A stretch of 64,000 nt of DNA from positions 7,057 to 71,056 of IMG/VR virus record IMGVR_UViG_3300028602_000011, one strand, 5' to 3'. The position numbers and the translations under genes are program-made. Under the pieces are notes generated by a model. The model had not been told where the DNA came from. It did no database searches and worked only from the letters and a program-made list of their open reading frames with translations. This document shows positions 35,257 through 54,380 of the stretch, piece after piece; positions within the stretch are counted from its first letter, which is position 1, and every line of letters starts with the position of its first letter. The DNA is from a virus. Taxonomy: Duplodnaviria > Caudoviricetes.

Positions 35257-35591
35257 TTTTTCACATTGCTTTGGTGCATTATTGTTTCTCTTTGAATTTT
35301 ACAAGGTTCCATTGCTTTGGTGAGTTGTATGCCTGTATACTGGCATTGAATAGGGATTAAAGAATCATGTGCATGTGTATAAGATATATTCGTTATTTTA
35401 ATCGTATGAAAATGATCCTCAATAATATCACCAATATTATATGGGTTGTGCATCATTGCATAAGCAATGAGGATTTTATTTCTTTCTTTTATATAACGTG
35501 TTTCTGTTTGTTTTAATAATTCTATTGTCTCTTCTTTAGTCATATCATATCTCCGGCAATGGGAAATGTTTTTTCTCTGACCAAGGGGCAT
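35229..35591 (-). CDS. Hypothetical protein (start probably MTKEET)
   Basis: Packed ORF in the operon. Confidence 0.5.
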   Translation of the reverse strand: MPLGQRKNISHCRRYDMTKEETIELLKQTETRYIKERNKILIAYAMMHNPYNIGDIIEDHFHTIKITNISYTHAHDSLIPIQCQYTGIQLTKAMEPCKIQRETIMHQSNVKKCHTLKRRK

Positions 35592-37500
35592 CTACATCAC
35601 AAATATCAGCATCAACAGTCAAAGGCACAATAATCCAATCCCAATGTTCTGCTAATTTTTTACAAGTTACCTCGACAACAGTCCGTGCCACATGTTCCAA
35701 CTCGTCTGGGTGTGTGTCTATAATAACAGCATCATGAATCTGATTTACAATACGGCTATCCCAATTCTCTTCAGCGGCAATTTTATTGATCGTTATAAAG
35801 GACCACAACAAACAATGAAAAGCAGAACCCTGTACCGGGTAATTGATTACTTCATTCTTACCCATTACCCCTTGGCATTTAAATCCGGTGAGTGTATTGA
35901 AATATCCATCCCTTTGATATTTAGCATGCCATTTTAATTTCCAAGCACCATATTCTCTAAAACGTACACCCCAAAAGTCTTCTTCAATGTTTTTCAGGTG
36001 TTGTTTAAATTTATCGTAAGAGGTGATTCCTTTGCTTATTAAGTGATCCCCAACTGTCATACCCTCTACGAAATCAACCCCGTATCCTTTGCGCCATTTG
36101 GTATGTGGTAACTGGCACCAAGTACACAGCCCATCCGTGTTATTCCCGTAATAGTCCCCGTAAAACTGTGGGAATATAAAACTGTTTTTAGTTGCGTTAC
36201 GTATTAGTTTATGTCCAGGGTATTTTGATTTATCATACCCATCCACCAAGAATATTTGTGCGGCAACATCACCATGCATATCAGCATGGTCTGATGTAAG
36301 GTACTTCAACATATTTTTATCTTTGTGGTAGCAATTTTTTAAAACTACACCAGCAGATGTAGCATAATTATGAATACCCTCCACATTTATATTGTAAACA
36401 TTCTCCCAGCCCATGAATTCTATTTTTACCACTTTATGATTATAAGTGGCTTTATATTCTTCCAAAGTTATATTATGTTCTAATTGCCTAGTACCATTAT
36501 TCAAATATATTTCACGGTAAACTGTACCATAATTAGACACACGCTTTCTTTTATAAAAAGGCATTAAACTTTCACCAATTTCTAAATCTGCTAATTTTTT
36601 ATACCCTTCTTTACGTGTTAAAAATTGGTGATCTTCTGTAGCCCTAATCACTTGGCCATTATCTAATGTAACACCCCACACACCCGTATTTCTTCTTGTA
36701 ATTCCACCCGAAGTTACTGGTGCTAATACAATGCGTTCTTCCTCTTGATTATATCCATAAACATACGTCTGTTCTCCATTGTTTACAGAATTGATTATAT
36801 CCAAAATTGTTCTACTTCCAGTGCTTGTTTCTAATAATGTATCTCCAGTCACACATGCGGCAATCGAAACTTCCAAGGCACCGAAATCAATCTCGATTAA
36901 CTGGTGCCCCGGCCTTGGGAAAATAGCTCGCCGACAGATCTTCATTGCTTCTTTGTCACGCTTGGGGATGTTTTGTAAATTAGGAGAGTTGGAACTTGAA
37001 CGATATGTACGCACTGTATGCAAATTGAGAAATGGGTGTATGTACCCGTTCACTTGTTCCCGAAGGAAAGCGTCTAGGTACGTATCCCGTATTTTTTGCA
37101 GTTTCTTAATATCCAAAATATACATCAATTCTGGAATATCTTTGGCTATTGTTATAAGGGATTCGTTATCTGTTGACCCTGTTTGTACAGCGTCCGGATC
37201 TTTTTTACCACCACCAGTCATTTTAGGTGGTTTAATTCCTTTAATCTTATACAGCATATGGGCTAATTGTTGCCCAGAATTGAAGTTGGTCTTCTCGCCA
37301 AATTGCTTTTTCCAATCTTTTATAAGGTCAGAAGAATTTAACTTTTCCTGTGCACGTGCTATTTTACGATCTATATGTTTCTTTTTCTTATTACAATAAT
37401 CAACATCAATTCGCATTCCATTTTGTTCAGCATGGGAGAAAGCTATTGTACCTTCATGCATTAAATTGTATGCATCTAGTGTTGTTGGCTGCATGCCCAT
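35545..37500 (-). CDS. DNA polymerase family A, polymerase domain, with intein
   Basis: TYRSSSNSPNLQNIP, motif A IEIDFGALE, motif B KNSFIFPQFYG, NYPVQGSA and motif C QIHD. Confidence 0.92.
   Translation of the reverse strand: MGMQPTTLDAYNLMHEGTIAFSHAEQNGMRIDVDYCNKKKKHIDRKIARAQEKLNSSDLIKDWKKQFGEKTNFNSGQQLAHMLYKIKGIKPPKMTGGGKKDPDAVQTGSTDNESLITIAKDIPELMYILDIKKLQKIRDTYLDAFLREQVNGYIHPFLNLHTVRTYRSSSNSPNLQNIPKRDKEAMKICRRAIFPRPGHQLIEIDFGALEVSIAACVTGDTLLETSTGSRTILDIINSVNNGEQTYVYGYNQEEERIVLAPVTSGGITRRNTGVWGVTLDNGQVIRATEDHQFLTRKEGYKKLADLEIGESLMPFYKRKRVSNYGTVYREIYLNNGTRQLEHNITLEEYKATYNHKVVKIEFMGWENVYNINVEGIHNYATSAGVVLKNCYHKDKNMLKYLTSDHADMHGDVAAQIFLVDGYDKSKYPGHKLIRNATKNSFIFPQFYGDYYGNNTDGLCTWCQLPHTKWRKGYGVDFVEGMTVGDHLISKGITSYDKFKQHLKNIEEDFWGVRFREYGAWKLKWHAKYQRDGYFNTLTGFKCQGVMGKNEVINYPVQGSAFHCLLWSFITINKIAAEENWDSRIVNQIHDAVIIDTHPDELEHVARTVVEVTCKKLAEHWDWIIVPLTVDADICDVDAPWSEKKHFPLPEI
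36334..36855 (-). mobile_element. Mini-intein (174 aa) in PolA
   Basis: Begins CVTGDT, has a TEDH block B, ends VYNINVEGIHNYATSAGVVLKN before Cys. No endonuclease motif. Confidence 0.88.
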
Positions 37501-38741
37501 CCCCCATCTATTGGATATTCATACCCAAGTTGTTTCATTTGTATTAAAGCTAATTTGAATTCCAACAAGGCATCCATCCCACAATATGTAAGCAATTCCC
37601 TTTCAGAATATTTTTCTATGAATTCATAAATCCTATTTTTAGAATTAGCATTTTTTGGGTCTATTCCCTTTAAATACGGGTTTATATCACTATCATAATC
37701 AGCAATACCAAAGTATATATATGCTTGGAATTTTAGACTTAGTATCCCCGGTCTATTATCGATAACATGCCCACCAATAAGTGTATCCCATATCCAGGGT
37801 TTTATACGTGTTCCAATGCGAACAAGGCTCCATGATTCTTCAAATTTCATGTTGGCCGCCATCTTACCACAATTTGCACTTTGTAGGTACTGGCCAAACA
37901 ATGCCCTATCTCTTTTCTTTTTAGGCATCATGAACGAAAATACTTTATCAGGAGCAACAGCGACAGCACAACACACAATACGATGTCCTCGTGCATGCGG
38001 TTTCAACCCAGTTGTTTCGTAATCTAAACAAGTTAAAGGCCAATAACCTAACCGTAACTTATCGAACAATGTTTGTAACTCGTTTGGGTCCGTAACATAT
38101 TCTATTTGGGATTGCTCATGTGGGAAGTTGGGGAATGGTATATCCACATGGGCAAGAGCATTTTCCAAATCCATTTCCCATATTTTTCGTACTTCTGGAT
38201 ACTGGCTTTGCCTATCTACAAATGACGGGTGAAACACAGGGCATATCCACGTATTTAATTCTCGATCTGGGATGCAAAACCCGCGCCATTTATTTATACC
38301 CCCTAAATCCTTCTTCCACTGTGCACCAATAACTGAATTAACTGCACTGGTGCCAAACAACATAATCACATGTGGTTTATTCTTTTTAATTGTTTTGAAC
38401 ACATTTTTTCTACAACATTGTATTTCATACGGTTTGGGTGTTTCACCATTATAACAACAAACAGAATTTGTATTCAAACAATCTTTATCAAGGTCAATTC
38501 CCAATTTTTTGTATGCTTGTCGAAGTGTTCTACCCGCCTTGCCTTTCCAGTGTTTTCCATGCAGGTCTTCCATATCCCCAGGAGCTTCACCAATATTCAA
38601 AATGCCCTTGGCAAAGCCCCCGGAGGGTTCCATTTTAGGAGAATCAGCATGCTTATACAAACCACAGGAAACACAGGAATACGTTTTACCATCAGGGCGG
38701 GATTCACTCTTAACTTCTGCGGAGCTAAAAAATCCCTTCAT
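37476..38741 (-). CDS. Family-4 uracil-DNA-glycosylase-like domain fused to 3'-5' exonuclease (N-terminal half of a SPO1-type PolA)
   Basis: CVSCGL, IGEAPG and FHPS (UDG4), then LDYETTG, NMKFE, WDTL and YCGMD (ExoI-III). Confidence 0.85.
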   Translation of the reverse strand: MKGFFSSAEVKSESRPDGKTYSCVSCGLYKHADSPKMEPSGGFAKGILNIGEAPGDMEDLHGKHWKGKAGRTLRQAYKKLGIDLDKDCLNTNSVCCYNGETPKPYEIQCCRKNVFKTIKKNKPHVIMLFGTSAVNSVIGAQWKKDLGGINKWRGFCIPDRELNTWICPVFHPSFVDRQSQYPEVRKIWEMDLENALAHVDIPFPNFPHEQSQIEYVTDPNELQTLFDKLRLGYWPLTCLDYETTGLKPHARGHRIVCCAVAVAPDKVFSFMMPKKKRDRALFGQYLQSANCGKMAANMKFEESWSLVRIGTRIKPWIWDTLIGGHVIDNRPGILSLKFQAYIYFGIADYDSDINPYLKGIDPKNANSKNRIYEFIEKYSERELLTYCGMDALLEFKLALIQMKQLGYEYPIDGGWACSQQH

Positions 38742-39778: not shown

Positions 39779-40783
39779 TTACAGGCCAAATCCAAACAAC
39801 TGCTTCTTACGTGTAAATCTCCATGGATATGGTGGCATAGCATTCTGCAAATCTATAAAGTATACTGAATTGAGAGTATCACGCATAATATAGCTATTCC
39901 GCAACCCTGATTCTACAATAGTCTCAACCACCCGCATCTTCATTTCTTCACGCTTTGCACCAACCCACTTTTCATTCTCCTGCAATTTGTATGTTCTCGG
40001 TTCTTTTCTGTATGTGGAAGAACCTATATTACATCCTTTTGCAGTAACATACTCTTCAAATTCAATCTTTTCGTTTATGCTTAATTCTTCATAATGTACT
40101 GCGGTAGCCTTGGGATTTATAACAGAAAGGGAAATCTTGTATGGTCTACGTGTGTAACACCATTCCCCATTGACACGGTATGGTACGAATACATGCCCAT
40201 TACGTGCCGTCATAATCCAACTCGTGCTGTCCACTGAATACCAAGGGTAACGCCACATGAGTGAAAAGTTGGTCAATCCAAACCCATGTAAGCGTACCAG
40301 TGGCCACCCATCTTTATCTGTTATGTGTTGTGACCATAGGTGGTCCAAATAAGGAGTAAGGCACTTATCTTTAACGACAAGCCCACCCATTGCTATGTAG
40401 TCTTCACCACTGTCCATGTACCTATGCAACCATTTAAAATCCTCTCCCATGTGGAATACTGGTATAGGATTCAAACCGGCCTTTTTCATCTTCACATGAT
40501 TTTTCCAAGTACCCTCTGCATCCCCAATCACATCTAAGTTTGCATACACTTCTAATCGGTCTTGGTACTCAGTCAAAAAAGCAATGTAATTATCAATATT
40601 GATTTCTTCACCTTTGGCTTTAGCACTAAAGGCACCACTATCGATAAATATACGCACTTTGTTTTTCAGGTCTAATTTCAGTGAAGAAACATCGTTCCCA
40701 TCATAGCAATAATAAAAAGAGTGAAGACGGTATGCGCCCTCACTCTCCTCGCGCACTTTATTACCCGCACGGTAAATTATCAC
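39779..40783 (-). CDS. dpdA: DpdA, TGT-like deazaguanine DNA transglycosylase
   Basis: [32 protein letters not shown] and SVDSTSW motifs; adjacent to folE/queC. Confidence 0.85.
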
Positions 40784-41349
40784 TTAATAAGACTCATGAA
40801 TTCATTGCGGGTGGATTGGTTGTCCAGAAAAGCACCTTTCATAGATGCCGTAACCATCATGCTATTCTGTTTGGAACAGCCACGCATCCTCATGCACATG
40901 TGCTGTGCTTCAATCACACAAGCGGCACCAGCGCAACCAACTTCTTCCATAAGAAAATCAGTAATCTGTTCGCACAGCCTTTCCTGGATTTGCAACCGTC
41001 GTGCATAAATATCAACCAATCTAGCCAGCTTGGAAATTCCCAACACACGACCATCATTACCAGGAATATATGCTACATGGGCTTTGCCAAAGAAAGGCAA
41101 CATGTGATGCTCACACATACTGTACACTTCGATTGCTTTCAAAATAACCATACCATCATATGTTTCAGCACCAAAGGAGGTAATCATATCCTTTGGGTTT
41201 TTACCGTACCCACAATACAATTCCTTCCAACTTTTGCGAATACGTTTGGGGGTATCTACCAAGCCTTCCCGATGTGGATTTTCGCCCAGATAACGTAATT
41301 GTGCTTTAATCCCCTCTTCAATATCCATTTCTGCAAAATCCAAAGGCAT
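40780..41349 (-). CDS. folE: GTP cyclohydrolase I
   Basis: [35 protein letters not shown] and HMCMRMRG. Confidence 0.96.
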
Positions 41350-41351
41350 TT

Positions 41352-42023
41352 TTATTCTCCTATAATTTGTTTTCGAAGTAAACAGTTATCACATTTGCCA
41401 CATGCCGGAACAAAATAGCAGGAGTGCGTTTTAGCAAAGTCCACATCCAATGTGCATCCAAATTGGTACACATCCCGCTTGTCCCAATGTCGTTCATAAA
41501 ATGGTGCACGTATCCTTGTTTGGTAGGACAACCCAACACCAGTAAGCATATTCATCATATCAACGAACTGCGGGGAATTATCGCCGGTCATAAGTTTGTA
41601 TGTTCTGCGTTTTTGCCATTCTTCCTTCCCGTACAAATAACCAACAAGCAACTCGTCAATCTTATGTGCAGAACAGTATGCAAGGGCATAGGCAATCATA
41701 ATCATGTTGCGGCCTTCAACAAAAGTTTCTTCATACCGCAACTTATCCCAATCACCAAGCGGGTCTTCCTCGTGGGAAACATAGCCGGGGGTAAACAACC
41801 CTTCTCCCTTTTTCTGCCAAGGAAACACAGGCATTTCCAGTATATCAATCTGCAACCCACCGAGTACGTGTGCATGGTGTGTAAGCAACTCGACTTGTTT
41901 GCTAAAAGCATCCTGCCCATAATTCGTTGTAAGAATTAGTGGCTTATCACCGCGCTTTACTTGTTCATACATAAGCACAGTCGAATCCATTCCACCAGTC
42001 GCCATTATTGCTGTTTTATGCAT
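41352..42023 (-). CDS. queC: QueC-family ATPase, paralog 1
   Basis: ATGGMDS, VEGRN and [15 protein letters not shown] (Zn site). Confidence 0.8.
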
Positions 42024-42718
42024 TCTGCAATCTCCTTTAATTCTTGGGGTGCACGGCCTTTAATAATACTCTGTGCATAAAAATCTGTTAAATCTTTTCT
42101 GGGATCAGCATCCATCATATCACGAACAAAAACACCTAACTGTGCATCAGCATAGCAAGCCGCAACATATTTTCGAAGGCATGATCTACATACACCACAA
42201 CCATGATCTGTACCGGCATAACAGCTTTTTGAATCAGCCAACAAATTTTTCGTTGCATATAAGCCAAACTGATCTATATATTTCTTTATGAGTTGGCCTT
42301 TGGATTTGTGTTTGAACGGCATGAATACTTCATGTTGGCCGGGGTGGTGTACCTTATCAACATCCAAAGCAAAGTAATTAAACAACCCTTCCATCTGGGC
42401 TTTAAAAACATAGTCTTTGTCTTTGGTGGTATCACCAGCGGTAAAGGCGAAATAAATTTGGTTGCTGTATTGTGCGCCAATAATGGCCAGCATGTGATTT
42501 CTGAAAGGGAGAATTTTGTTGCCAAGTTCAAATTGGCATAGGGGAAGGTCTACTTTTTTGATACCAGTAAAAGCATAGGAATCAATAAACTTTTCTTCTT
42601 GTACATTTTCCTGGGTGCCAAGACGTACAAACAAGCATTCACGATCTTCAAAACTGTATAAGTGTTTAAGCATTAACGAATCTAATCCACCACTGAACAA
42701 TAAGATTCTATCGGCCAT
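42005..42718 (-). CDS. queC: QueC-family ATPase, paralog 2
   Basis: LFSGGLDS, LPFRN and KSCYAGTDHGCGVCRSC. Confidence 0.78.
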   Translation of the reverse strand: MADRILLFSGGLDSLMLKHLYSFEDRECLFVRLGTQENVQEEKFIDSYAFTGIKKVDLPLCQFELGNKILPFRNHMLAIIGAQYSNQIYFAFTAGDTTKDKDYVFKAQMEGLFNYFALDVDKVHHPGQHEVFMPFKHKSKGQLIKKYIDQFGLYATKNLLADSKSCYAGTDHGCGVCRSCLRKYVAACYADAQLGVFVRDMMDADPRKDLTDFYAQSIIKGRAPQELKEIAECIKQQ

Positions 42719-42951
42719 TGCAATCCACCTTGATTTTTATCGTCTATATAAACATCCGCCCGAAGCTTATCCATTACTAAAGCATGGTATTTTATACCGG
42801 CTCGATGTAATTCATCCTCGGTCTCTTTTCGTATGGAACAAGAACGGGCTGTATGTATCACAATAAAGTTATCCTTGTTTTCATACAGCCCGTTTACTCT
42901 ATCCGGGTGGGACAATGCTGTCCCATCCAGATCAATCGCGATTACATTCAT
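42682..42951 (-). CDS. Minimal HAD-superfamily phosphatase-like protein
   Basis: IAIDLDGT, HTAR and K..ADVYIDD motifs. Confidence 0.7.
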   Translation of the reverse strand: MNVIAIDLDGTALSHPDRVNGLYENKDNFIVIHTARSCSIRKETEDELHRAGIKYHALVMDKLRADVYIDDKNQGGLQWPIESYCSVVD

Positions 42952-42952
42952 G

Positions 42953-43771
42953 TTACTTCAGCTTTGGGTCATTAACTCCAAGCTCTCCGTAGGCACGTTC
43001 GTATGTCTTCATACGGTACTCAGCCCACTTCAAATCTTTACCGGCGACTTCTGCCAGTTTAGCGGTGATCTTTGCACGCTTCTGGCCAGCTTTGATAGCT
43101 GTGCGAATCACGTCAGTCTGGTTTACACCGGGGGTGGCCGAGACAGTGCCCTTTTTGCCATTCTTGATTTTGGCGGGAGTGGCTGGCTGTTCCAATTTGG
43201 ATACACGCCACATTTCGGGCTTCAGCTCGCGAGGACCGGCCAGACCCTGAAATGTGTCAAGCTTCTTGCGAAGCAACTTAAATTCAGCATGTTTCATACA
43301 AAGGTCTTTGAGGTCTTTCAGCTTCTTGGTGCACTGGAGGATTTCAGAAAGGGTCTTTTCTACTTCAGGCTCGGGATCTTCTTCTTCCTCGTCTTCCTCA
43401 ACATCTTCTTCTTCAACTGATCCCTCTTCATCATCAGTGCCCTTTTCCTCTTCCTCTTTGTCTTCTTCATCTGCACCCTCATCGTCTTCGTCTTCGTCTT
43501 CGTCTTCTTCTTCGTCCTCGTCCTCAACTACAGGGGCTTCGTCTTCGTCCTCGTCCTCAGCCCCTGTACGAAAAGCGGCTTCCAGCTCTTCCAATACATC
43601 CCAAGTGCTGTCTTCAAATTCGTCGCTCTCGGGATCAATCAGACTACCAGCCTGTTTAATAAGGGATATTAATTTCTGTACGGGCTTGGTGAGATCGATT
43701 GCAGGGTCAAGACCAAGTTCAGTATTCAATTCTTTTGCCGCCGCTACCAGTGCCTTCTTTTTAAGAGCCAT
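42953..43771 (-). CDS. Acidic protein with a C-terminal domain shared with ORF 58936-59577
   Basis: Central Asp/Glu tract; C-terminal GVNQT...RMKTYERAYG. Confidence 0.7.
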   Translation of the reverse strand: MALKKKALVAAAKELNTELGLDPAIDLTKPVQKLISLIKQAGSLIDPESDEFEDSTWDVLEELEAAFRTGAEDEDEDEAPVVEDEDEEEDEDEDEDDEGADEEDKEEEEKGTDDEEGSVEEEDVEEDEEEEDPEPEVEKTLSEILQCTKKLKDLKDLCMKHAEFKLLRKKLDTFQGLAGPRELKPEMWRVSKLEQPATPAKIKNGKKGTVSATPGVNQTDVIRTAIKAGQKRAKITAKLAEVAGKDLKWAEYRMKTYERAYGELGVNDPKLK

Positions 43772-43802
43772 TGTTTCCTCCTGATTAGGAATGGTCTATT
43801 TG

Positions 43803-44147
43803 TTAGTGTTGCCGTACATTAAGATTTAAGTTTTCACATGTCAAGGTTTCTTCATAAATTATTTGTAAAATCTTGTTTCTTGTAACATTACCAAGTAAAA
43901 CCTCTTTCTTAAAATAACGCAATTTCTTTTTGGTATTAGTGACATACCGTTTATTGTTTCGTAGGGTAGCAAAGTCCATCGTAGTTTCCATACAAAGCAA
44001 ATACCAACGAACTAAAGTATCTCTGGACCAGTACGGCATAGTGATTGGGCAAAGACATAATAAACAAGCACAACATTGTTTTTCGTCCTTTACTACCATG
44101 CCATTTAATAAAATGTCATCGTCCAATATACCCGTATTGCTGTCCAT
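43803..44147 (-). CDS. Hypothetical protein
   Basis: Directly downstream of promoter copy 2. Confidence 0.55.
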   Translation of the reverse strand: MDSNTGILDDDILLNGMVVKDEKQCCACLLCLCPITMPYWSRDTLVRWYLLCMETTMDFATLRNNKRYVTNTKKKLRYFKKEVLLGNVTRNKILQIIYEETLTCENLNLNVRQH

Positions 44148-44167
44148 GTGTGTAACCCCTTTAATAT

Positions 44168-44201
44168 ATTATATTGCCATCGGTGCGTTTGGTTTAGGGC
44201 A
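44168..44201 (-). promoter_or_regulatory. Phage promoter copy 2 (TGCCCTAAA-N19-TATAAT)
   Basis: Same boxes and spacing as the other three copies. Confidence 0.75.
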
Positions 44202-45843
44202 AATTTAAAAATTTATGTAATTGGGTATTCACCATCACGCAATCTTCCATATGCTCTGTGCAAATCAAATTCAATATATCTGCATAGGAGATTAACTCCC
44301 CTTTTGTAATGATTGGAGATATTGCAAAGGTGCAGTCAGGAAAATATTCATGCTGTCGTCGTATTTCCTTGAGTATTTGTGGTAATTGCTTACGTGATTC
44401 TACTGCATATTTAATCACGGTGTGCGAATTACCCATAACTATAGAATGCCGAGCATAAAATGTTTTCTCCGATTCGTCCAAAAACAATTTGCGATCAATT
44501 ACCCAAGAAATATGTCTGGTACCAGCAAAACAGCATAATGAGCCTTCAATTTCTAAAGAGCCATTAGTTTCTACCTGCACCTTTAGATTTTTGTGTAGCA
44601 AAGTGTTGAGTAACCGTGTTAGCATGGGTTTCTGTATGAGTGGTTCACCACCAGTGATAAGCACCTTATCAGACTTGATATATGGCAGTATATCATCGAT
44701 GCTCATAAGATACAGACATCCTGTGGATATGGACTGTTTTGTATCACAATTATGTACCCACATATTATCAACCAAATAAGAATTATATGGGAAACATGAT
44801 AAATTGTATACTAATAAAGGTTTTGGTCTGGTCGATGGTGGAAAAGAATTTCGATCAATTTTTTTGGTTGCTTCAACTACAAAACCATTTTGTGCTTGCA
44901 TCTCTTTTCCATCAGTACGTGAACCATTCCAAAAATTAAAACCAGTTGCATGTAAAGAATAATGGCAAGATTCACAAACAACTTGTAGATTATTTTTTGC
45001 ATCATTTTTATTATCACCATCTATATGATGCACATCCAAGCCAATACCATTATTCTTTTTACAAGGAATTGAATCTGGAAAATATTTTCCACAAATGGCA
45101 CAGTGTTGTATCTGTCTATTGGTTACTTGTTTTTTTAAAGCCTCATAATTTTTTTGTGCACCACCTTTCCAATTACCATTTTTTGCACCAGAATTACCAA
45201 CACTTATTTTTTCACGTACTTTCATTTTTTGAATATCTGTTAATGTATCCCATGCACAAATGTATGTTCCTTCTTTTTTCTTTTTTAATACAGCCTTAGA
45301 AATAGCGGTACCAACTTTTTTATAATCTGTGTTTTTTGTTGATTTAGCACATACTTCTGGATCGTGCATTGGGTTTTCTAATTGCTTTTGTAATGATATT
45401 TTTTGTTGGAATGTTGCATGAAGAATCAAATCACCAACCACTAATTCATCTGCACGTCGTATTCCTTTGGTAGTAAAAAATGGGTGTTCTTCAGTTACAA
45501 AATATAAAGTACCATCAATTCTAATTTGCAACCAAGAATCAACTTCTCTTTTAATAACTCGTGAAACTGTAGTTTCAACCAAATTTTTATCAGCATCAAA
45601 GGTCATTAAATTATCACCAACAGTGACATCCGTAATTTTTTTATTCTTGTGTCTTGATAATATGATTCTTGGGATGCGTCTACCTGCACGAACCCCAAAA
45701 CACCAAGGGCATTTTAAATTGCAACCCTGTAATCGAATGAATGTAACCACAGAACCTTGTGGGAAGGCACCACCAACCTCCCCACTAATCGAAGTAAATA
45801 TTTCATTTACATTCAACGAATCTTCCATATTTACATACCCCAT
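44194..45843 (-). CDS. queE: 7-carboxy-7-deazaguanine synthase (radical SAM) interrupted by an intein; ~231 aa spliced
   Basis: EIFTSISGE, FIRLQGCNLKCPW^CDT, ITGGEPL and VETNG. Confidence 0.9.
   Translation of the reverse strand: MGYVNMEDSLNVNEIFTSISGEVGGAFPQGSVVTFIRLQGCNLKCPWCFGVRAGRRIPRIILSRHKNKKITDVTVGDNLMTFDADKNLVETTVSRVIKREVDSWLQIRIDGTLYFVTEEHPFFTTKGIRRADELVVGDLILHATFQQKISLQKQLENPMHDPEVCAKSTKNTDYKKVGTAISKAVLKKKKEGTYICAWDTLTDIQKMKVREKISVGNSGAKNGNWKGGAQKNYEALKKQVTNRQIQHCAICGKYFPDSIPCKKNNGIGLDVHHIDGDNKNDAKNNLQVVCESCHYSLHATGFNFWNGSRTDGKEMQAQNGFVVEATKKIDRNSFPPSTRPKPLLVYNLSCFPYNSYLVDNMWVHNCDTKQSISTGCLYLMSIDDILPYIKSDKVLITGGEPLIQKPMLTRLLNTLLHKNLKVQVETNGSLEIEGSLCCFAGTRHISWVIDRKLFLDESEKTFYARHSIVMGNSHTVIKYAVESRKQLPQILKEIRRQHEYFPDCTFAISPIITKGELISYADILNLICTEHMEDCVMVNTQLHKFLNLP
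44749..45702 (-). mobile_element. Intein (318 aa) with HNH endonuclease
   Basis: Begins at Cys after CPW, has a TEEH block B and CAIC...VHHIDG...NNL..VCESCH, ends VYNLSC.PYNSYLVDNMWVHN before Cys. Confidence 0.9.
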
Positions 45844-46232
45844 TCTGCATAACTCGTTGGTGTTTCGTACAAACGCACTTTTTCGATTTGCATATTTGGA
45901 TTCAGCACTTTCGGCAATGCAACCTCAGCTAACCAAATAACCATCATTTCTGCTGTTGGGCAATCAGCAGGGAATCCATGCATCAAACCAACTGCGGAAA
46001 TTTCATTCAGGCATTTATGATCCAAATTTTCCAGTACATAATTAGTAGATTCCTTCAAATCTGCAAAATCAATCACCATGCCATTTTTATCCAATCTGGA
46101 AACAGATATGCCGATTTGCAATTTATACGTGTGCCCATGCAGATTATGACATTTTCCCTTATGCAATGGGAGAAAATGTGCGGAATCAAACGTAAATTCT
46201 TTCACAACCATTACTTTATTCATCAGTGCCAC
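45831..46232 (-). CDS. queD: 6-carboxy-tetrahydropterin synthase
   Basis: FDSAHFL, CHNLHGHTY, DFADLK, LDH, PTAE and LYETPTS. Confidence 0.95.
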   Translation of the reverse strand: MALMNKVMVVKEFTFDSAHFLPLHKGKCHNLHGHTYKLQIGISVSRLDKNGMVIDFADLKESTNYVLENLDHKCLNEISAVGLMHGFPADCPTAEMMVIWLAEVALPKVLNPNMQIEKVRLYETPTSYAEWGM

Positions 46233-53885: not shown

Positions 53886-54380
53886 CTAGTTTATAGCGTC
53901 TTTAATTTCGTCAAAACTATTCCAAATCCTACTCCAGGACCAACCAACTTCACGTAATTTACGATATACATGCCCTCTGCTTTTCTTGGGCTTACCCATC
54001 TCAAAAAAATCAAGTGGGTTGGTCAAAATCAGTTCTATAATAAAACGAGAATCGGGACTCAACTGCATTATTGCTTCTTTAAAACCGTAAATTCTTTCAG
54101 GTGTGTGGTAATAAATAGGTTCATACACATCAGTGCCATCTTCTAATTCATAATCTCCGGAAATATGTATTTGCTTATTACAATACATTAACATCGCATT
54201 TTTGAACACAATAAACAAGAAGGTACTTTTTTTAATTCCTTTGCTTGAATCCCACTTATCTTTTTTCTCGTAATAAGCAATAAAAGCAACGGAGGCCAGA
54301 TCATCCACGGAACATCCTGTGGTACTGGCAATTCCCCATGCCAGTTTGTATATCATGCCGGTGTAGTTTTCGATTTGCAA
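53886..54380 (-). CDS. Sigma-factor-like protein
   Basis: MIYKLAW...DDLAS.AF...WDSSKG.K.STF pattern of sigma region 2. Confidence 0.65.
   Translation of the reverse strand: MQIENYTGMIYKLAWGIASTTGCSVDDLASVAFIAYYEKKDKWDSSKGIKKSTFLFIVFKNAMLMYCNKQIHISGDYELEDGTDVYEPIYYHTPERIYGFKEAIMQLSPDSRFIIELILTNPLDFFEMGKPKKSRGHVYRKLREVGWSWSRIWNSFDEIKDAIN

Follow-up and report, generated by a model that had tools for sequence, protein, structure and literature searches.

Gene content and organization of the locus

The window analysed here, a stretch of 64,000 nucleotides, belongs to a phage genome of 71 kb (71,056 bp) that has terminal repeats and a completeness rated at 100%. The genes of interest all lie on the minus strand and mostly overlap or abut, giving the cluster an operon-like layout: queD, queE, a 114-aa ORF, a gene for an acidic 272-aa protein, a HAD-like ORF, QueC-B, QueC-A, folE and dpdA. 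The original prediction had listed queD, queE, the HAD-like ORF, two queC genes, folE and dpdA; their coordinates and shared orientation are borne out, as is the identity of each named gene. It had overlooked two ORFs between queE and the HAD-like ORF (43803-44147 and 42953-43771) and, within queE, a 318-aa HNH intein that we found by alignment. Profile searches with QueF, DUF5591 (ArcS), GATase_6 and GATase_7 gave no match across the whole 71,056-bp genome, so that the earlier statement on the absence of QueF, ArcS and glutamine amidotransferase genes extends to the complete genome. Likewise, no further tailoring enzyme was found among the approximately 40 ORFs scanned.

Genes for base synthesis and insertion

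The first gene, queD (45831..46232, minus strand; 133 aa), encodes a predicted 6-carboxytetrahydropterin synthase with matches to Pfam PTPS (1.6e-34), phrog_2389 and TIGR03367, the last at 95.3 bits (cut-off 89.25). The next, queE (44194..45843, minus strand), encodes a predicted radical-SAM 7-carboxy-7-deazaguanine (CDG) synthase (TIGR03963, 7.7e-27; phrog_2076, 7.1e-24; additional Intein_splicing and HNH matches). Its length of 549 aa is explained by the HNH-endonuclease intein (44749..45702, minus strand; QueE aa 48-365), which interrupts the radical-SAM CxxxCxxC motif immediately ahead of the third Cys. This intein is recognized by an alignment gap, by its predicted boundary (a terminal HN followed by Cys) and by matches to PF14890, PF01844 and HNH PHROGs, and the QueE exteins are collinear end to end with the intein-free QueE of two relatives (L005 and L012). 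Further along, folE (40780..41349, minus strand; 189 aa) encodes a predicted GTP cyclohydrolase I (PF01227, 7.8e-70). The last gene, dpdA (39779..40783, minus strand; 334 aa), has no Pfam match in the profile search; from its match to phrog_887 (9e-50) and its identity to the DpdA of phages 9g and CAjan (40-41%), a gene for a DpdA1-like DNA 7-deazaguanine transglycosylase is present. Identity to the Rosebush protein is 35%, sequence comparison with CP220 and GR11A gave no match, and tblastn with dpdA matched 241 phage records.

The locus thereby encodes predicted FolE, QueD and QueE together with DpdA, the combination by which phage 7-deazaguanine DNA modification systems are recognized. From what is established for these well-characterised families, FolE, QueD and QueE (once the intein has spliced out) would convert GTP to CDG, and the DpdA1-type transglycosylase would exchange the finished base into DNA. 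In phages 9g and CAjan, insertion of preQ0 by transglycosylases of the DpdA1 type has been demonstrated (PMC6884629).

Neighbouring small ORFs

Directly upstream of QueC-B lies an ORF of 89 aa (42682..42951, minus strand) for a minimal HAD-type phosphatase-like protein with a DxDGT motif (phrog_1238, 5.6e-11; NF046079, 6.5e-05). It always holds this position within the lineage of the source phage, and the synteny is kept in 21 loci, including L026/L027, L039 and L040; in the L070/L071 cluster an HAD-like ORF is present but QueC-B is not adjacent to it. The acidic 272-aa protein (42953..43771, minus strand) has a helical domain at its N-terminal side, then a long linker rich in Asp/Glu, and ends in a basic C-domain that is conserved. 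It has no Pfam or NCBIfam match, and its orthologs occupy the same position in 12 loci (L005-L007, L010-L013, L015, L017, L018, L039 and L040), with an N-terminus that varies across the alignment. The 114-aa ORF (43803..44147, minus strand) has no family match and is clearly shared only with the closest relatives, L005 and L006, besides one weak match (3e-05) in L015.

Two non-canonical QueC proteins

QueC-B (42005..42718, minus strand; 237 aa) and QueC-A (41352..42023, minus strand; 223 aa) are predicted PP-loop ATPases on the basis of PF06508 matches, family alignments, the tree and AF2 models; from their distribution they are proposed here as the primary CDG-processing enzyme and an accessory enzyme, respectively. 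The two genes are neighbours with a 19-nt overlap. QueC-A scores 96.4 bits against PF06508 and QueC-B 33.1 bits (cut-off 22), with a match that spans the C-terminal half only; against TIGR00364 they reach 82.9 and 21.7 bits, both below the equivalog cut-off of 150.3. BLASTP between the two gives E=0.05, and only profile-profile alignment (hhalign) joins them, with 96.9% probability at 18% identity, which agrees with their earlier description as otherwise dissimilar. Judged from these alignments and the tree, QueC-A and QueC-B are paralogs of ancient origin, each belonging to a different non-canonical clade that is restricted to phages.

QueC-B carries SGGLDS, IPxRN, GDTTKDKD in place of YPDC, a CGxCRSC zinc site and a C-terminal helical extension of about 50 aa; QueC-A carries ATGGMDS (TGGMDS), a retained YGQ, ExRN, TGDN in place of YPDC, an EW insertion and a retained zinc site. 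The SGGxDS-type PP-loop and the C(x)nCxxCxxC zinc site of canonical QueC are found in both, and the PP-loop and C-terminal Cys cluster noted originally are confirmed, with four C-terminal Cys in each protein. Across the alignments of both families the PP-loop, the four zinc cysteines and R99/N100/D133/K165/Y189 (E. coli numbering) are invariant. With these core catalytic residues intact neither QueC looks dead, and both look active.

In E. coli QueC the essential residues are Y35, R99, Y131 and Y189 (PMC13329287). QueC-A keeps Y35, R99 and Y189 and has Thr at position 131; QueC-B keeps R99 and Y189, with Met/Leu/Thr at position 35 and Thr at position 131. The replacement of YPDC is family-wide, by TGDN in QueC-A and T(K/R)DK in QueC-B, and removes the essential stacking Tyr. 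The Y35xQxHxxE pocket is altered differently in the two families: H39 is gone from both, and QueC-B retains E42 as well as the Pro of PxRN. Having lost both Tyr that are essential in E. coli QueC, QueC-B is on paper the worse candidate for an ordinary preQ0 synthase. The original prediction had assumed that one of the copies was an ordinary QueC; this assumption fails, since both proteins stay below the TIGR00364 cut-off and have lost YPDC.

The AF2 model of QueC-B (pLDDT 94) has QueC and Cap9 as its best PDB matches, and that of QueC-A (pLDDT 94.2) has Cap9 as its top match (9nto_B, E 6.4e-11, TM 0.84 by target). The residues corresponding to D133 and R99 hold the deazaguanine in the Cap9 structure; as both are retained, a 7-deazaguanine substrate is likely for both QueCs. 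Their invariance also tells against a reading in which one paralog is non-catalytic or a PP-loop ATPase with another substrate, for instance a nucleotide handled together with the HAD phosphatase. Such a role would fit the C-terminal confinement of the Pfam match of QueC-B, the Lys-rich motif that replaces its YPDC and its tight linkage to the HAD-like ORF, but there are clusters encoding FolE, QueD, QueE and DpdA in which no QueC other than QueC-B is present, and we consider the reading improbable. We grant just as little to protein deazaguanylation, in which QueC-A (or QueC-B) would attach CDG at the N-terminus of a protein of the phage or its host, perhaps as counter-defence. A protein amine is indeed accepted by this fold, as Cap9 and QatC demonstrate, and Cap9 is the best structural match of QueC-A; a high target-normalised TM is expected, however, because Cap9 is a minimal QueC fold. 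The PADLOC Cap9-type and QatC models score weakly, a CD-NTase or QatB-like partner is absent, and members of the A clade are located in 7-deazaguanine gene clusters. Alignment of the 272-aa protein, the sole conserved non-enzyme protein of the cluster, revealed no conserved target for conjugation, its N-terminus being variable.

Distribution and phylogeny

The HAD–QueC-B–QueC-A block is kept in about 18 viral contigs, with identities of 34-55% for QueC-B and 47-73% for QueC-A. The QueC-B clade (support 95* in the tree) is phage-restricted and usually found beside dpdA, which it adjoins in L001, L019, L026-L029, L041, L059 and L070/71. Although it is the weaker Pfam QueC match of the two paralogs, QueC-B is the copy that occurs on its own elsewhere: nothing else matches PF06508 in Phage NCTB, in Bacteroides phage BS162P1 or in two viral genomes rated 100% complete (196 and 102 kb). 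On the syntenic contig L040 the order is QueD-QueE-acidic-HAD-QueC-B-FolE-DpdA without QueC-A, and the solo members L016 and L020 nest among the paired ones in the tree; in L070/71 QueC-B is paired with a 509-aa Gat-QueC. Standing alone is no proof of preQ0 synthesis, because a host QueC could supply preQ0.

No member of the QueC-A superclade was found without a second QueC in the IMG/VR loci, in eight other viral loci or in Vibrio phages GR11A and GR7B. In IMG/VR all 16 of 16 QueC-A loci lie on contigs that also carry QueC-B, a canonical QueC is present in 8/8 of the other viral loci of the superclade, and 68/80 sampled loci have one canonical QueC only. Much of the co-occurrence comes from one viral lineage, within which shared ancestry inflates the counts. 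L059 combines one A-like and one B-like QueC. Monophyly of the A-superclade has an SH-aLRT of 94 in a quick tree with several long branches. As to its settings, dpdA was detected in the source phage, L059 and L063, with ArcS2-like proteins, QueF or other que genes elsewhere; the occurrence of QueF in some loci and ArcS2-like proteins in others argues against a single fixed terminal product such as G+. Our literature search found no paper describing the QueC-A or QueC-B clade, and a recent survey of QueC-family enzymes (Libby et al. 2026, PMC13329287) does not cover viral clades.

These distributions bear on two other readings of the pair. The paralogs might be redundant isozymes, both turning CDG into preQ0 and merely boosting flux or suiting different conditions, so that the DNA would contain only dPreQ0, perhaps with traces of dADG. 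This is consistent with the PP-loop, zinc site and deazaguanine-contacting Asp and Arg kept in both, with a DpdA of the type that inserts preQ0 in 9g and CAjan (PMC6884629) and with the lack of another tailoring enzyme among the ORFs scanned. Redundancy would not, however, be expected to keep the pair together over a divergence to 18% identity, with each family conserving its own remodelling of the nucleophile pocket and YPDC motif, and it leaves unexplained why phages already equipped with a fully canonical QueC gain an A-type protein; we regard it as unlikely. Less probable still is an obligate relay or heterodimer, in which one paralog would convert CDG to its amide ADG and the other dehydrate ADG to preQ0, jointly equalling one canonical QueC. 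The overlapping genes fit such a scheme, as does the incomplete canonical signature of each paralog (Y35 is kept by QueC-A, E42 and the Pro of PxRN by QueC-B), and Cap9, a member of the QueC family, forms a homodimer at the core of its complex. The structure of B. subtilis QueC is dimeric too. Yet QueC-B occurs without QueC-A in L040, L016/L020, L026-L029 and in complete genomes, and the partners of A-superclade members include complete canonical QueCs, for which no helper is needed; a fused B-A protein was not found among longer proteins, which is weak evidence.

Proposed division of labour and its significance

The original reasoning, that one QueC suffices and the second is distinct, no longer starts from an ordinary copy, but it gains from the ancient paralogy, the conserved pairing, the fact that QueC-A never occurs alone and the intact core residues: the second QueC probably has a distinct role. 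From their distribution we infer that two non-canonical QueC ATP-pyrophosphatases act between CDG synthesis and DpdA and share the work. QueC-B would take the primary QueC role by adenylating the CDG carboxylate on the way to the base used by DpdA, most likely preQ0 or ADG. QueC-A would then carry out a second, likewise ATP-dependent step on the carboxyl or amide at C7 and give a further derivative. Candidates for it are a G+-like amidine, formed with no glutaminase domain involved, and an N-substituted 7-carboxamide of the kind made by RoyL-type ligases. The locus, read with this division of labour as a complete phage operon for replacing DNA guanines with a 7-deazaguanine, is best explained in this way, and we give the explanation as a whole about an even chance.

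That two very different non-standard QueCs occur together, one capable of standing alone elsewhere and the other always accompanied, suggests that an undescribed DNA base may be made. More tentatively, and in our estimate rather less likely than not, the QueC-A superclade (possibly also QueC-B) could be a new family of deazapurine ligases in phages. These would join adenylated CDG or ADG to a nucleophile that differs from the usual one, yielding a base outside the eight described. The usual route runs through ammonia and then dehydration. If the ligase proposal holds, the source lineage and cultured phages such as GR11A and GR7B would carry an undescribed 7-deazaguanine DNA base. This could be an N-substituted 7-carboxamide, or else an amidine formed with no involvement of Gat, ArcS or QueF-L.

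Phage 7-deazaguanine bases block restriction enzymes, and each of the eight derivatives known is tied to a specific tailoring enzyme. The QueC-B clade replaces canonical QueC beside DpdA, while the QueC-A clade is an add-on to another QueC; both have a remodelled version of the pocket that selects the nucleophile in related enzymes, and this makes them concrete candidates for a ninth derivative or for a new route to a known one. Cultured carriers are available for the A clade (GR11A and GR7B) and for the B clade (Bacteroides phage BS162P1). Even if the DNA carries only dPreQ0, the essential residues of E. coli QueC would still be shown not to be universal.

Comparison with known systems

The source phage shares its pathway logic and gene set with the dPreQ0/dG+ systems of the Queuovirinae, and FolE, QueD and QueE are clear orthologs. 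Escherichia phage CAjan (FolE-QueD-QueE-QueC-DpdA1) has one canonical QueC with 251 bits to PF06508, and Enterobacteria phage 9g has the same set with a single Gat-QueC, whose QueC domain falls in a separate small clade of our tree; the source phage lacks a Gat domain and has instead two stand-alone non-canonical QueCs, which score 96 and 33 bits. With canonical QueC (PF06508 cluster 1, PMC13329287) both paralogs share the fold (best PDB matches 3bl5 and 2pg3), the SGGxDS-type PP-loop, the four-Cys zinc site, the RN motif, K165 and Y189, but YPDC and H39 are lost in both, Y35 in QueC-B, and they form separate clades. An assignment of either paralog to canonical QueC (EC 6.3.4.20) was rejected, as both score below 150.3 against TIGR00364 and depart from the signature YxQxHxxE, VPxRN, YPDC.

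Membership of Gat-QueC, QatC or Cap9, which the original prediction had raised for comparison, is not supported by domains, PADLOC scores or motifs. For Gat-QueC (G+ synthase) the proteins are too short, at 223 and 237 aa, and lack the N-terminal class-II GATase fusion. Cap9 of type IV CBASS (about 185 aa, with Y/FxQ and YxDC, encoded beside a CD-NTase) is a minimal QueC with high fold similarity to QueC-A, but its length, motifs and partners differ: YxDC is absent from both paralogs and the cluster has no CD-NTase. PADLOC PDLC00911, which is named 'QueC' and which we took as the Cap9-type model from its length of 190 positions, gave 26 and 50 bits, with a partial match for QueC-A. QatC is larger (about 400 aa, extended at both the N- and the C-terminus), has motifs of its own and is encoded with qatA, qatB and qatD; it is unlike either paralog (PADLOC 14.6 bits on the PP-loop only; Foldseek TM 0.27-0.45). 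Both Cap9 and QatC are repurposed QueC scaffolds that ligate CDG to a protein N-terminus, using an amine other than ammonia. RoyL, a QueC homolog of the Streptomyces roseomycin pathway, attaches amino acids to adenylated CDG; its amine pocket is formed by the YxxxHxxE residues Tyr41/His45/Glu48, and small amines can replace ammonia (bioRxiv 10.64898/2026.04.15.718813). By this description RoyL keeps Tyr41, His45 and Glu48, whereas the His equivalent is absent in both paralogs, and RoyL belongs to secondary-metabolite clusters without dpdA, unlike the source phage.

The cultured Vibrio phages vB_VcorM_GR11A and GR7B, for which our literature search found no DNA-modification data, have two adjacent annotated QueC genes, one of which is a member of the A-superclade (27% identity to QueC-A, 1.6e-17). 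Their clusters also encode a DUF5591 (ArcS2-like) protein, a lysine-2,3-aminomutase-like radical SAM enzyme and a GNAT, and the partner of the A-clade protein is a fully canonical QueC, where the source phage has QueC-B.

Genome setting and gene content of the 7-deazaguanine cluster

The source record is 71,056 bp long with direct terminal repeats, is rated 100% complete, and contributes its bases 7057-71056 to the window; a search for a near-identical phage record found none. From ca. 24 kb onwards the genes are encoded on the minus strand, and family scans assign them to a module for replication and nucleotide metabolism that includes an intein-bearing family A DNA polymerase, a UDG-like protein, a sliding clamp and its loader, RecA, FEN, an SbcCD-like pair, ThyX, a protein resembling dCTP deaminase, an SNF2 helicase, a DnaC-like loader, and a sigma-factor-like protein. 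The polymerase ORF (35545-37500, minus strand) matches the intein family PF14890 (1.8e-12) at residues 230-389; the ORF after it (37476-38741, listed with this minus-strand ORF) encodes the UDG-superfamily protein, and a sigma-70 region-2-like protein lies at 53886-54380 (minus strand).

The gene list of the original prediction is borne out by the ORF listing and family scans, with all genes on the minus strand: queD (45831-46232; PTPS, 1.6e-34; TIGR03367, score above the cut-off); queE (44194-45843; QueE models); an 89-aa HAD-like ORF (42682-42951; phrog_1238, 5.6e-11); QueC-B (42005-42718; SGGLDS; PF06508, 33.1 bits); QueC-A (41352-42023; ATGGMDS; PF06508, 96.4 bits); folE (40780-41349; 7.8e-70); and dpdA (39779-40783; phrog_887, 9e-50). 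Two further minus-strand ORFs were missing from that list, one of 114 aa (43803-44147) and one encoding an acidic protein of 272 aa (42953-43771). The DpdA shares 40-41% identity with DpdA1 from phages 9g and CAjan, and 35% with the Rosebush enzyme; as a query it found no match in CP220 or GR11A. DpdL, a QueD paralog according to the literature, was rejected as an explanation, the QueD of the window scoring above the QueD cut-off. The reported absence of QueF, ArcS, and glutamine amidotransferase genes from the window extends to the complete genome, where QueF, DUF5591 (the ArcS core), GATase_6, and GATase_7 gave zero matches in searches that were positive for control genomes. Nor did Pfam scans of some 40 ORFs reveal a methyltransferase, glycosyltransferase, aminotransferase, or second radical SAM enzyme.

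The queE product (549 aa) is interrupted by an intein of 318 aa that carries an HNH endonuclease domain and was delimited by alignment with intein-free QueE (residues 48-365; 44749-45702, minus strand). This intein begins with Cys, ends in His-Asn followed by Cys, and is inserted directly ahead of the third Cys in the radical-SAM motif CxxxCxxC; its exteins are collinear end to end with the intein-free QueE of L005 and L012 (L-numbers denote viral or metagenomic loci carrying QueC-like genes). Since the intein is missing from QueE of every related contig examined, it looks like a recent invasion. With queE so interrupted, the pathway would depend on protein splicing. Counting the polymerase, at least two genes of this genome bear an intein. 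Our literature search on QueE inteins returned nothing usable.

Two divergent QueC-family proteins

The two QueCs had been called otherwise dissimilar, and BLASTP indeed relates them only at E=0.05; they are joined solely by profile-profile comparison (96.9% probability, 18% identity). By these measures, QueC-A and QueC-B are ancient paralogs. The predicted fold of both is that of QueC, judging from AlphaFold2 models with a pLDDT of 94.0 for QueC-B and 94.2 for QueC-A. The QueC-B model is closest to QueC of B. subtilis and Erwinia and to Cap9 (TM 0.57-0.71), and the QueC-A model to Cap9 (target-normalised TM 0.84), followed by QueC; QatC, TilS, LarE, and GMP synthetase are farther from both models. 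Cap9 and QatC join 7-carboxy-7-deazaguanine (CDG) to a protein N-terminus. Membership of the paralogs in the Cap9 or QatC subfamily was ruled out by PADLOC scores.

By score and by motif, neither phage protein is a canonical QueC. Against PF06508 they reach 96 (QueC-A) and 33 bits (QueC-B), compared with 156-251 for the known phage QueCs of CAjan, 9g, and CP220, and both fall far below the TIGR00364 equivalog cut-off. The canonical signature comprises SGGxDS, YxQxHxxE, VPxRN, YPDC, K165, and the zinc cysteines, and E. coli QueC is killed by Y35A, R99A, Y131A, and Y189A (Libby et al. 2026, PMC13329287). We aligned these motifs in E. coli QueC, six phage QueCs, 15 QueC-A relatives, and 23 QueC-B relatives (E. 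coli numbering). The QueC-A family has TGGxDS in the PP-loop, keeps Y35, and carries His or Gln at Q37, Ala/Val/Thr at H39, (I/V)ExRN for VPxRN, and TGDN for YPDC, together with a conserved insertion containing an invariant Glu-Trp. The QueC-B family has SGGxDS, replaces Y35 by Met/Leu/Thr (Ile in solo members), Q37 by Thr, and H39 by Glu or Asp, reads IPxRN, and has T(K/R)DK for YPDC inside an invariant GDTTKDKD motif; a helical C-terminal extension of about 50 aa follows. Both families keep K165, Y189, and the four cysteines.

In the Cap9-CdnD crystal structure, Asp117 holds the deazaguanine, which is stacked between Tyr115 and Arg86; by motif correspondence (YxDC/YPDC and RN/VPxRN) these residues equal E. 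coli D133, Y131, and R99. As neither the Asp nor the Arg varies in either phage family, a 7-deazaguanine is likely the substrate of QueC-A and QueC-B alike. One stacking face is gone in both families by comparison with Cap9. In the Streptomyces QueC homolog RoyL, which joins amino acids to adenylated CDG, the incoming amine is contacted by Tyr41, His45, and Glu48 (bioRxiv 10.64898/2026.04.15.718813). From their spacing we equate these residues with the YxQxHxxE motif, the most-altered one in both paralogs, with changes that differ between them.

In the public gene call, QueC-A (P0075) has 212 aa, 11 fewer than the 223-aa ORF, which would put its start inside the PP-loop; homologs support the full-length start. 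The QueC* of Campylobacter phage CP220 was rejected as a model for either paralog, because it retains FPDC and clusters with the canonical enzymes.

A quick IQ-TREE analysis of 82 sequences has several long branches and an arbitrary root, and was therefore used only for the following groupings. QueC-A falls in an A-superclade of 39 rows (SH-aLRT 94); the QueC-B types make up another clade, of 17 rows (support 95), with the solo members L016 and L020 nested among paired ones; the canonical clade holds QueC of E. coli, CAjan, Dp-1, Rosebush, Sonali, and CP220; and the Gat-QueC domain of 9g is a small clade alone.

Distribution of the two families

A search of 5.8 billion proteins gave 74 QueC-B clusters (35-56% identity), all metagenomic or viral, and in the ESM Atlas QueC-B lies within virus-dominated clusters. 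Among 185,579 species genomes it occurs in three MAG contigs only, of which at least two (L039, L040) carry the phage cluster; in the third (L041), QueC-B adjoins dpdA. IMG/VR yielded 25 QueC-B loci. Comparison of six-frame ORFs with the proteins of the window located the block HAD–QueC-B–QueC-A in L005-L015, L017, L018, L023-L025, and L039, usually set within queD–queE–acidic protein–HAD–QueC-B–QueC-A–folE–dpdA–clamp; the truncated contig L022 starts with QueC-B–QueC-A. The dpdA gene appears as two consecutive ORFs in L008 (11324-13289, separated by a short clamp-like fragment) and L025 (1975-3860), which could reflect duplication, insertion, or an assembly problem.

The QueC-A family comprises at least 124 clusters (46-73% identity), and its profile recovered 16 IMG/VR loci, each with QueC-B on the same contig (16/16); much of this co-occurrence comes from one viral lineage, and flanks of 8-10 kb were examined. 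The more distant QueC-B types are the only QueC of their loci (L026/L027, L028, L029, L041, L016, L020/L021, Bacteroides phage BS162P1, and Phage NCTB), as in L026/L027 with FolE-HAD-QueC-B-DpdA plus QueD and QueE. In whole-record searches, BS162P1, NCTB, and two viral genomes of 100% completeness (196 kb and 102 kb) each had just one PF06508 gene. L040 keeps full synteny with just 38 bp separating QueC-B from folE, so that there is no QueC-A there. Among longer proteins no HAD-QueC or B-A fusion was found, which is weak evidence.

A minimal HAD-type phosphatase-like ORF lies almost always directly upstream of QueC-B (window, L005-L027, L039, L040, L070), even in distant clusters without QueC-A (L026/L027). 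We know of no step in the 7-deazaguanine pathway that requires a phosphatase. Twelve related loci conserve the acidic 272-aa protein within the cluster. Its N-domain is helical, its linker long and rich in Asp/Glu, and its basic C-terminal domain, which is conserved, contains the motif QTDxIR...YExxYG; the protein matches no family. It was rejected as a deazaguanylation target, its N-terminus not being conserved.

With phmmer against 1.84 billion representatives, 1134 QueC-A relatives were found, only 10 of them below 1e-30. Beyond these lies a broad tier at 28-37% identity, in which YPDC is likewise missing and the zinc motif often reads SCEF(Y/F)PxCGxCxQC; in the tree it joins QueC-A in the A-superclade. 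For the locus search the broad A-clade alignment was too divergent and a narrower one worked; one protein, P0221, gave no viral locus. Three clade HMMs were used to type every QueC-like ORF in a further 80 IMG/VR loci: 68 have one canonical QueC, eight an A-superclade member, always with a canonical QueC (8/8), two a Gat-QueC with a B-clade member, and two multiple canonical copies. Paired phage QueCs or A and B clades are not described in PMC6884629, PMC10516641, PMC13329287, or a 2026 deazapurine genome-mining preprint, within an incomplete coverage of the literature; in the 2026 QueC-family survey (PMC13329287), viruses appear only in the taxonomic-distribution figure.

Proposed roles and comparison with other phage systems

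These distributions would be most simply explained by one primary QueC per cluster, canonical or B-type, converting CDG to the base inserted by DpdA, and by optional second enzymes acting at C7 (Gat-QueC, QueF, ArcS2, or an A-clade protein). In the present phage the primary role would fall to QueC-B and the accessory one to QueC-A, a division of labour to which we give an even chance. Less likely, though possible, are two redundant enzymes, an obligate relay between them, protein deazaguanylation, or a substrate other than a deazaguanine. Phages without a canonical copy may be complemented by host QueC. The QueC fold would adenylate the C7 carboxylate (or amide oxygen) for nucleophile attack or elimination, and with this chemistry QueC-A could make an amidine or N-substituted amide. 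That the phage carries a new DNA base seems to us rather doubtful.

L070/L071 represent Gat-QueC phages that retain a B-clade QueC: the QueC-B-type gene and a 509-aa Gat-QueC lie directly upstream of dpdA, in a cluster (ca. 1.4-10.6 kb) of the order QueD-QueE-FolE-HAD-(second radical SAM ORF)-Gat-QueC-QueC-B-type-DpdA. In L059, A-like and B-like QueCs flank an ORF of no assigned function between queE and dpdA. The neighbours of the A clade vary between loci: L060-L062 have canonical QueC – methyltransferase – DUF5591 (ArcS2-like) – A-clade, and L086, L087, and L098 have adjacent A-clade and canonical QueCs in either order with QueF beside the pair. The cultured Vibrio phages vB_VcorM_GR11A and GR7B likewise combine an A-clade QueC (gene 52, 27% identical to QueC-A) with a fully canonical one (gene 53) and DUF5591 (gene 54), near a lysine-2,3-aminomutase-like radical SAM enzyme and a GNAT protein; in GR11A (L058, MT366761, 49.8-57.9 kb) three large proteins without assigned function are also close by. 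Literature searches on the DNA modification of BS162P1, GR11A, and GR7B found nothing usable; from its gene content the GR11A locus looks like an uncharacterised hypermodification cluster. The A clade thus stands beside different terminal enzymes, QueF in some phages and ArcS2 in others, which argues against a single obvious product.
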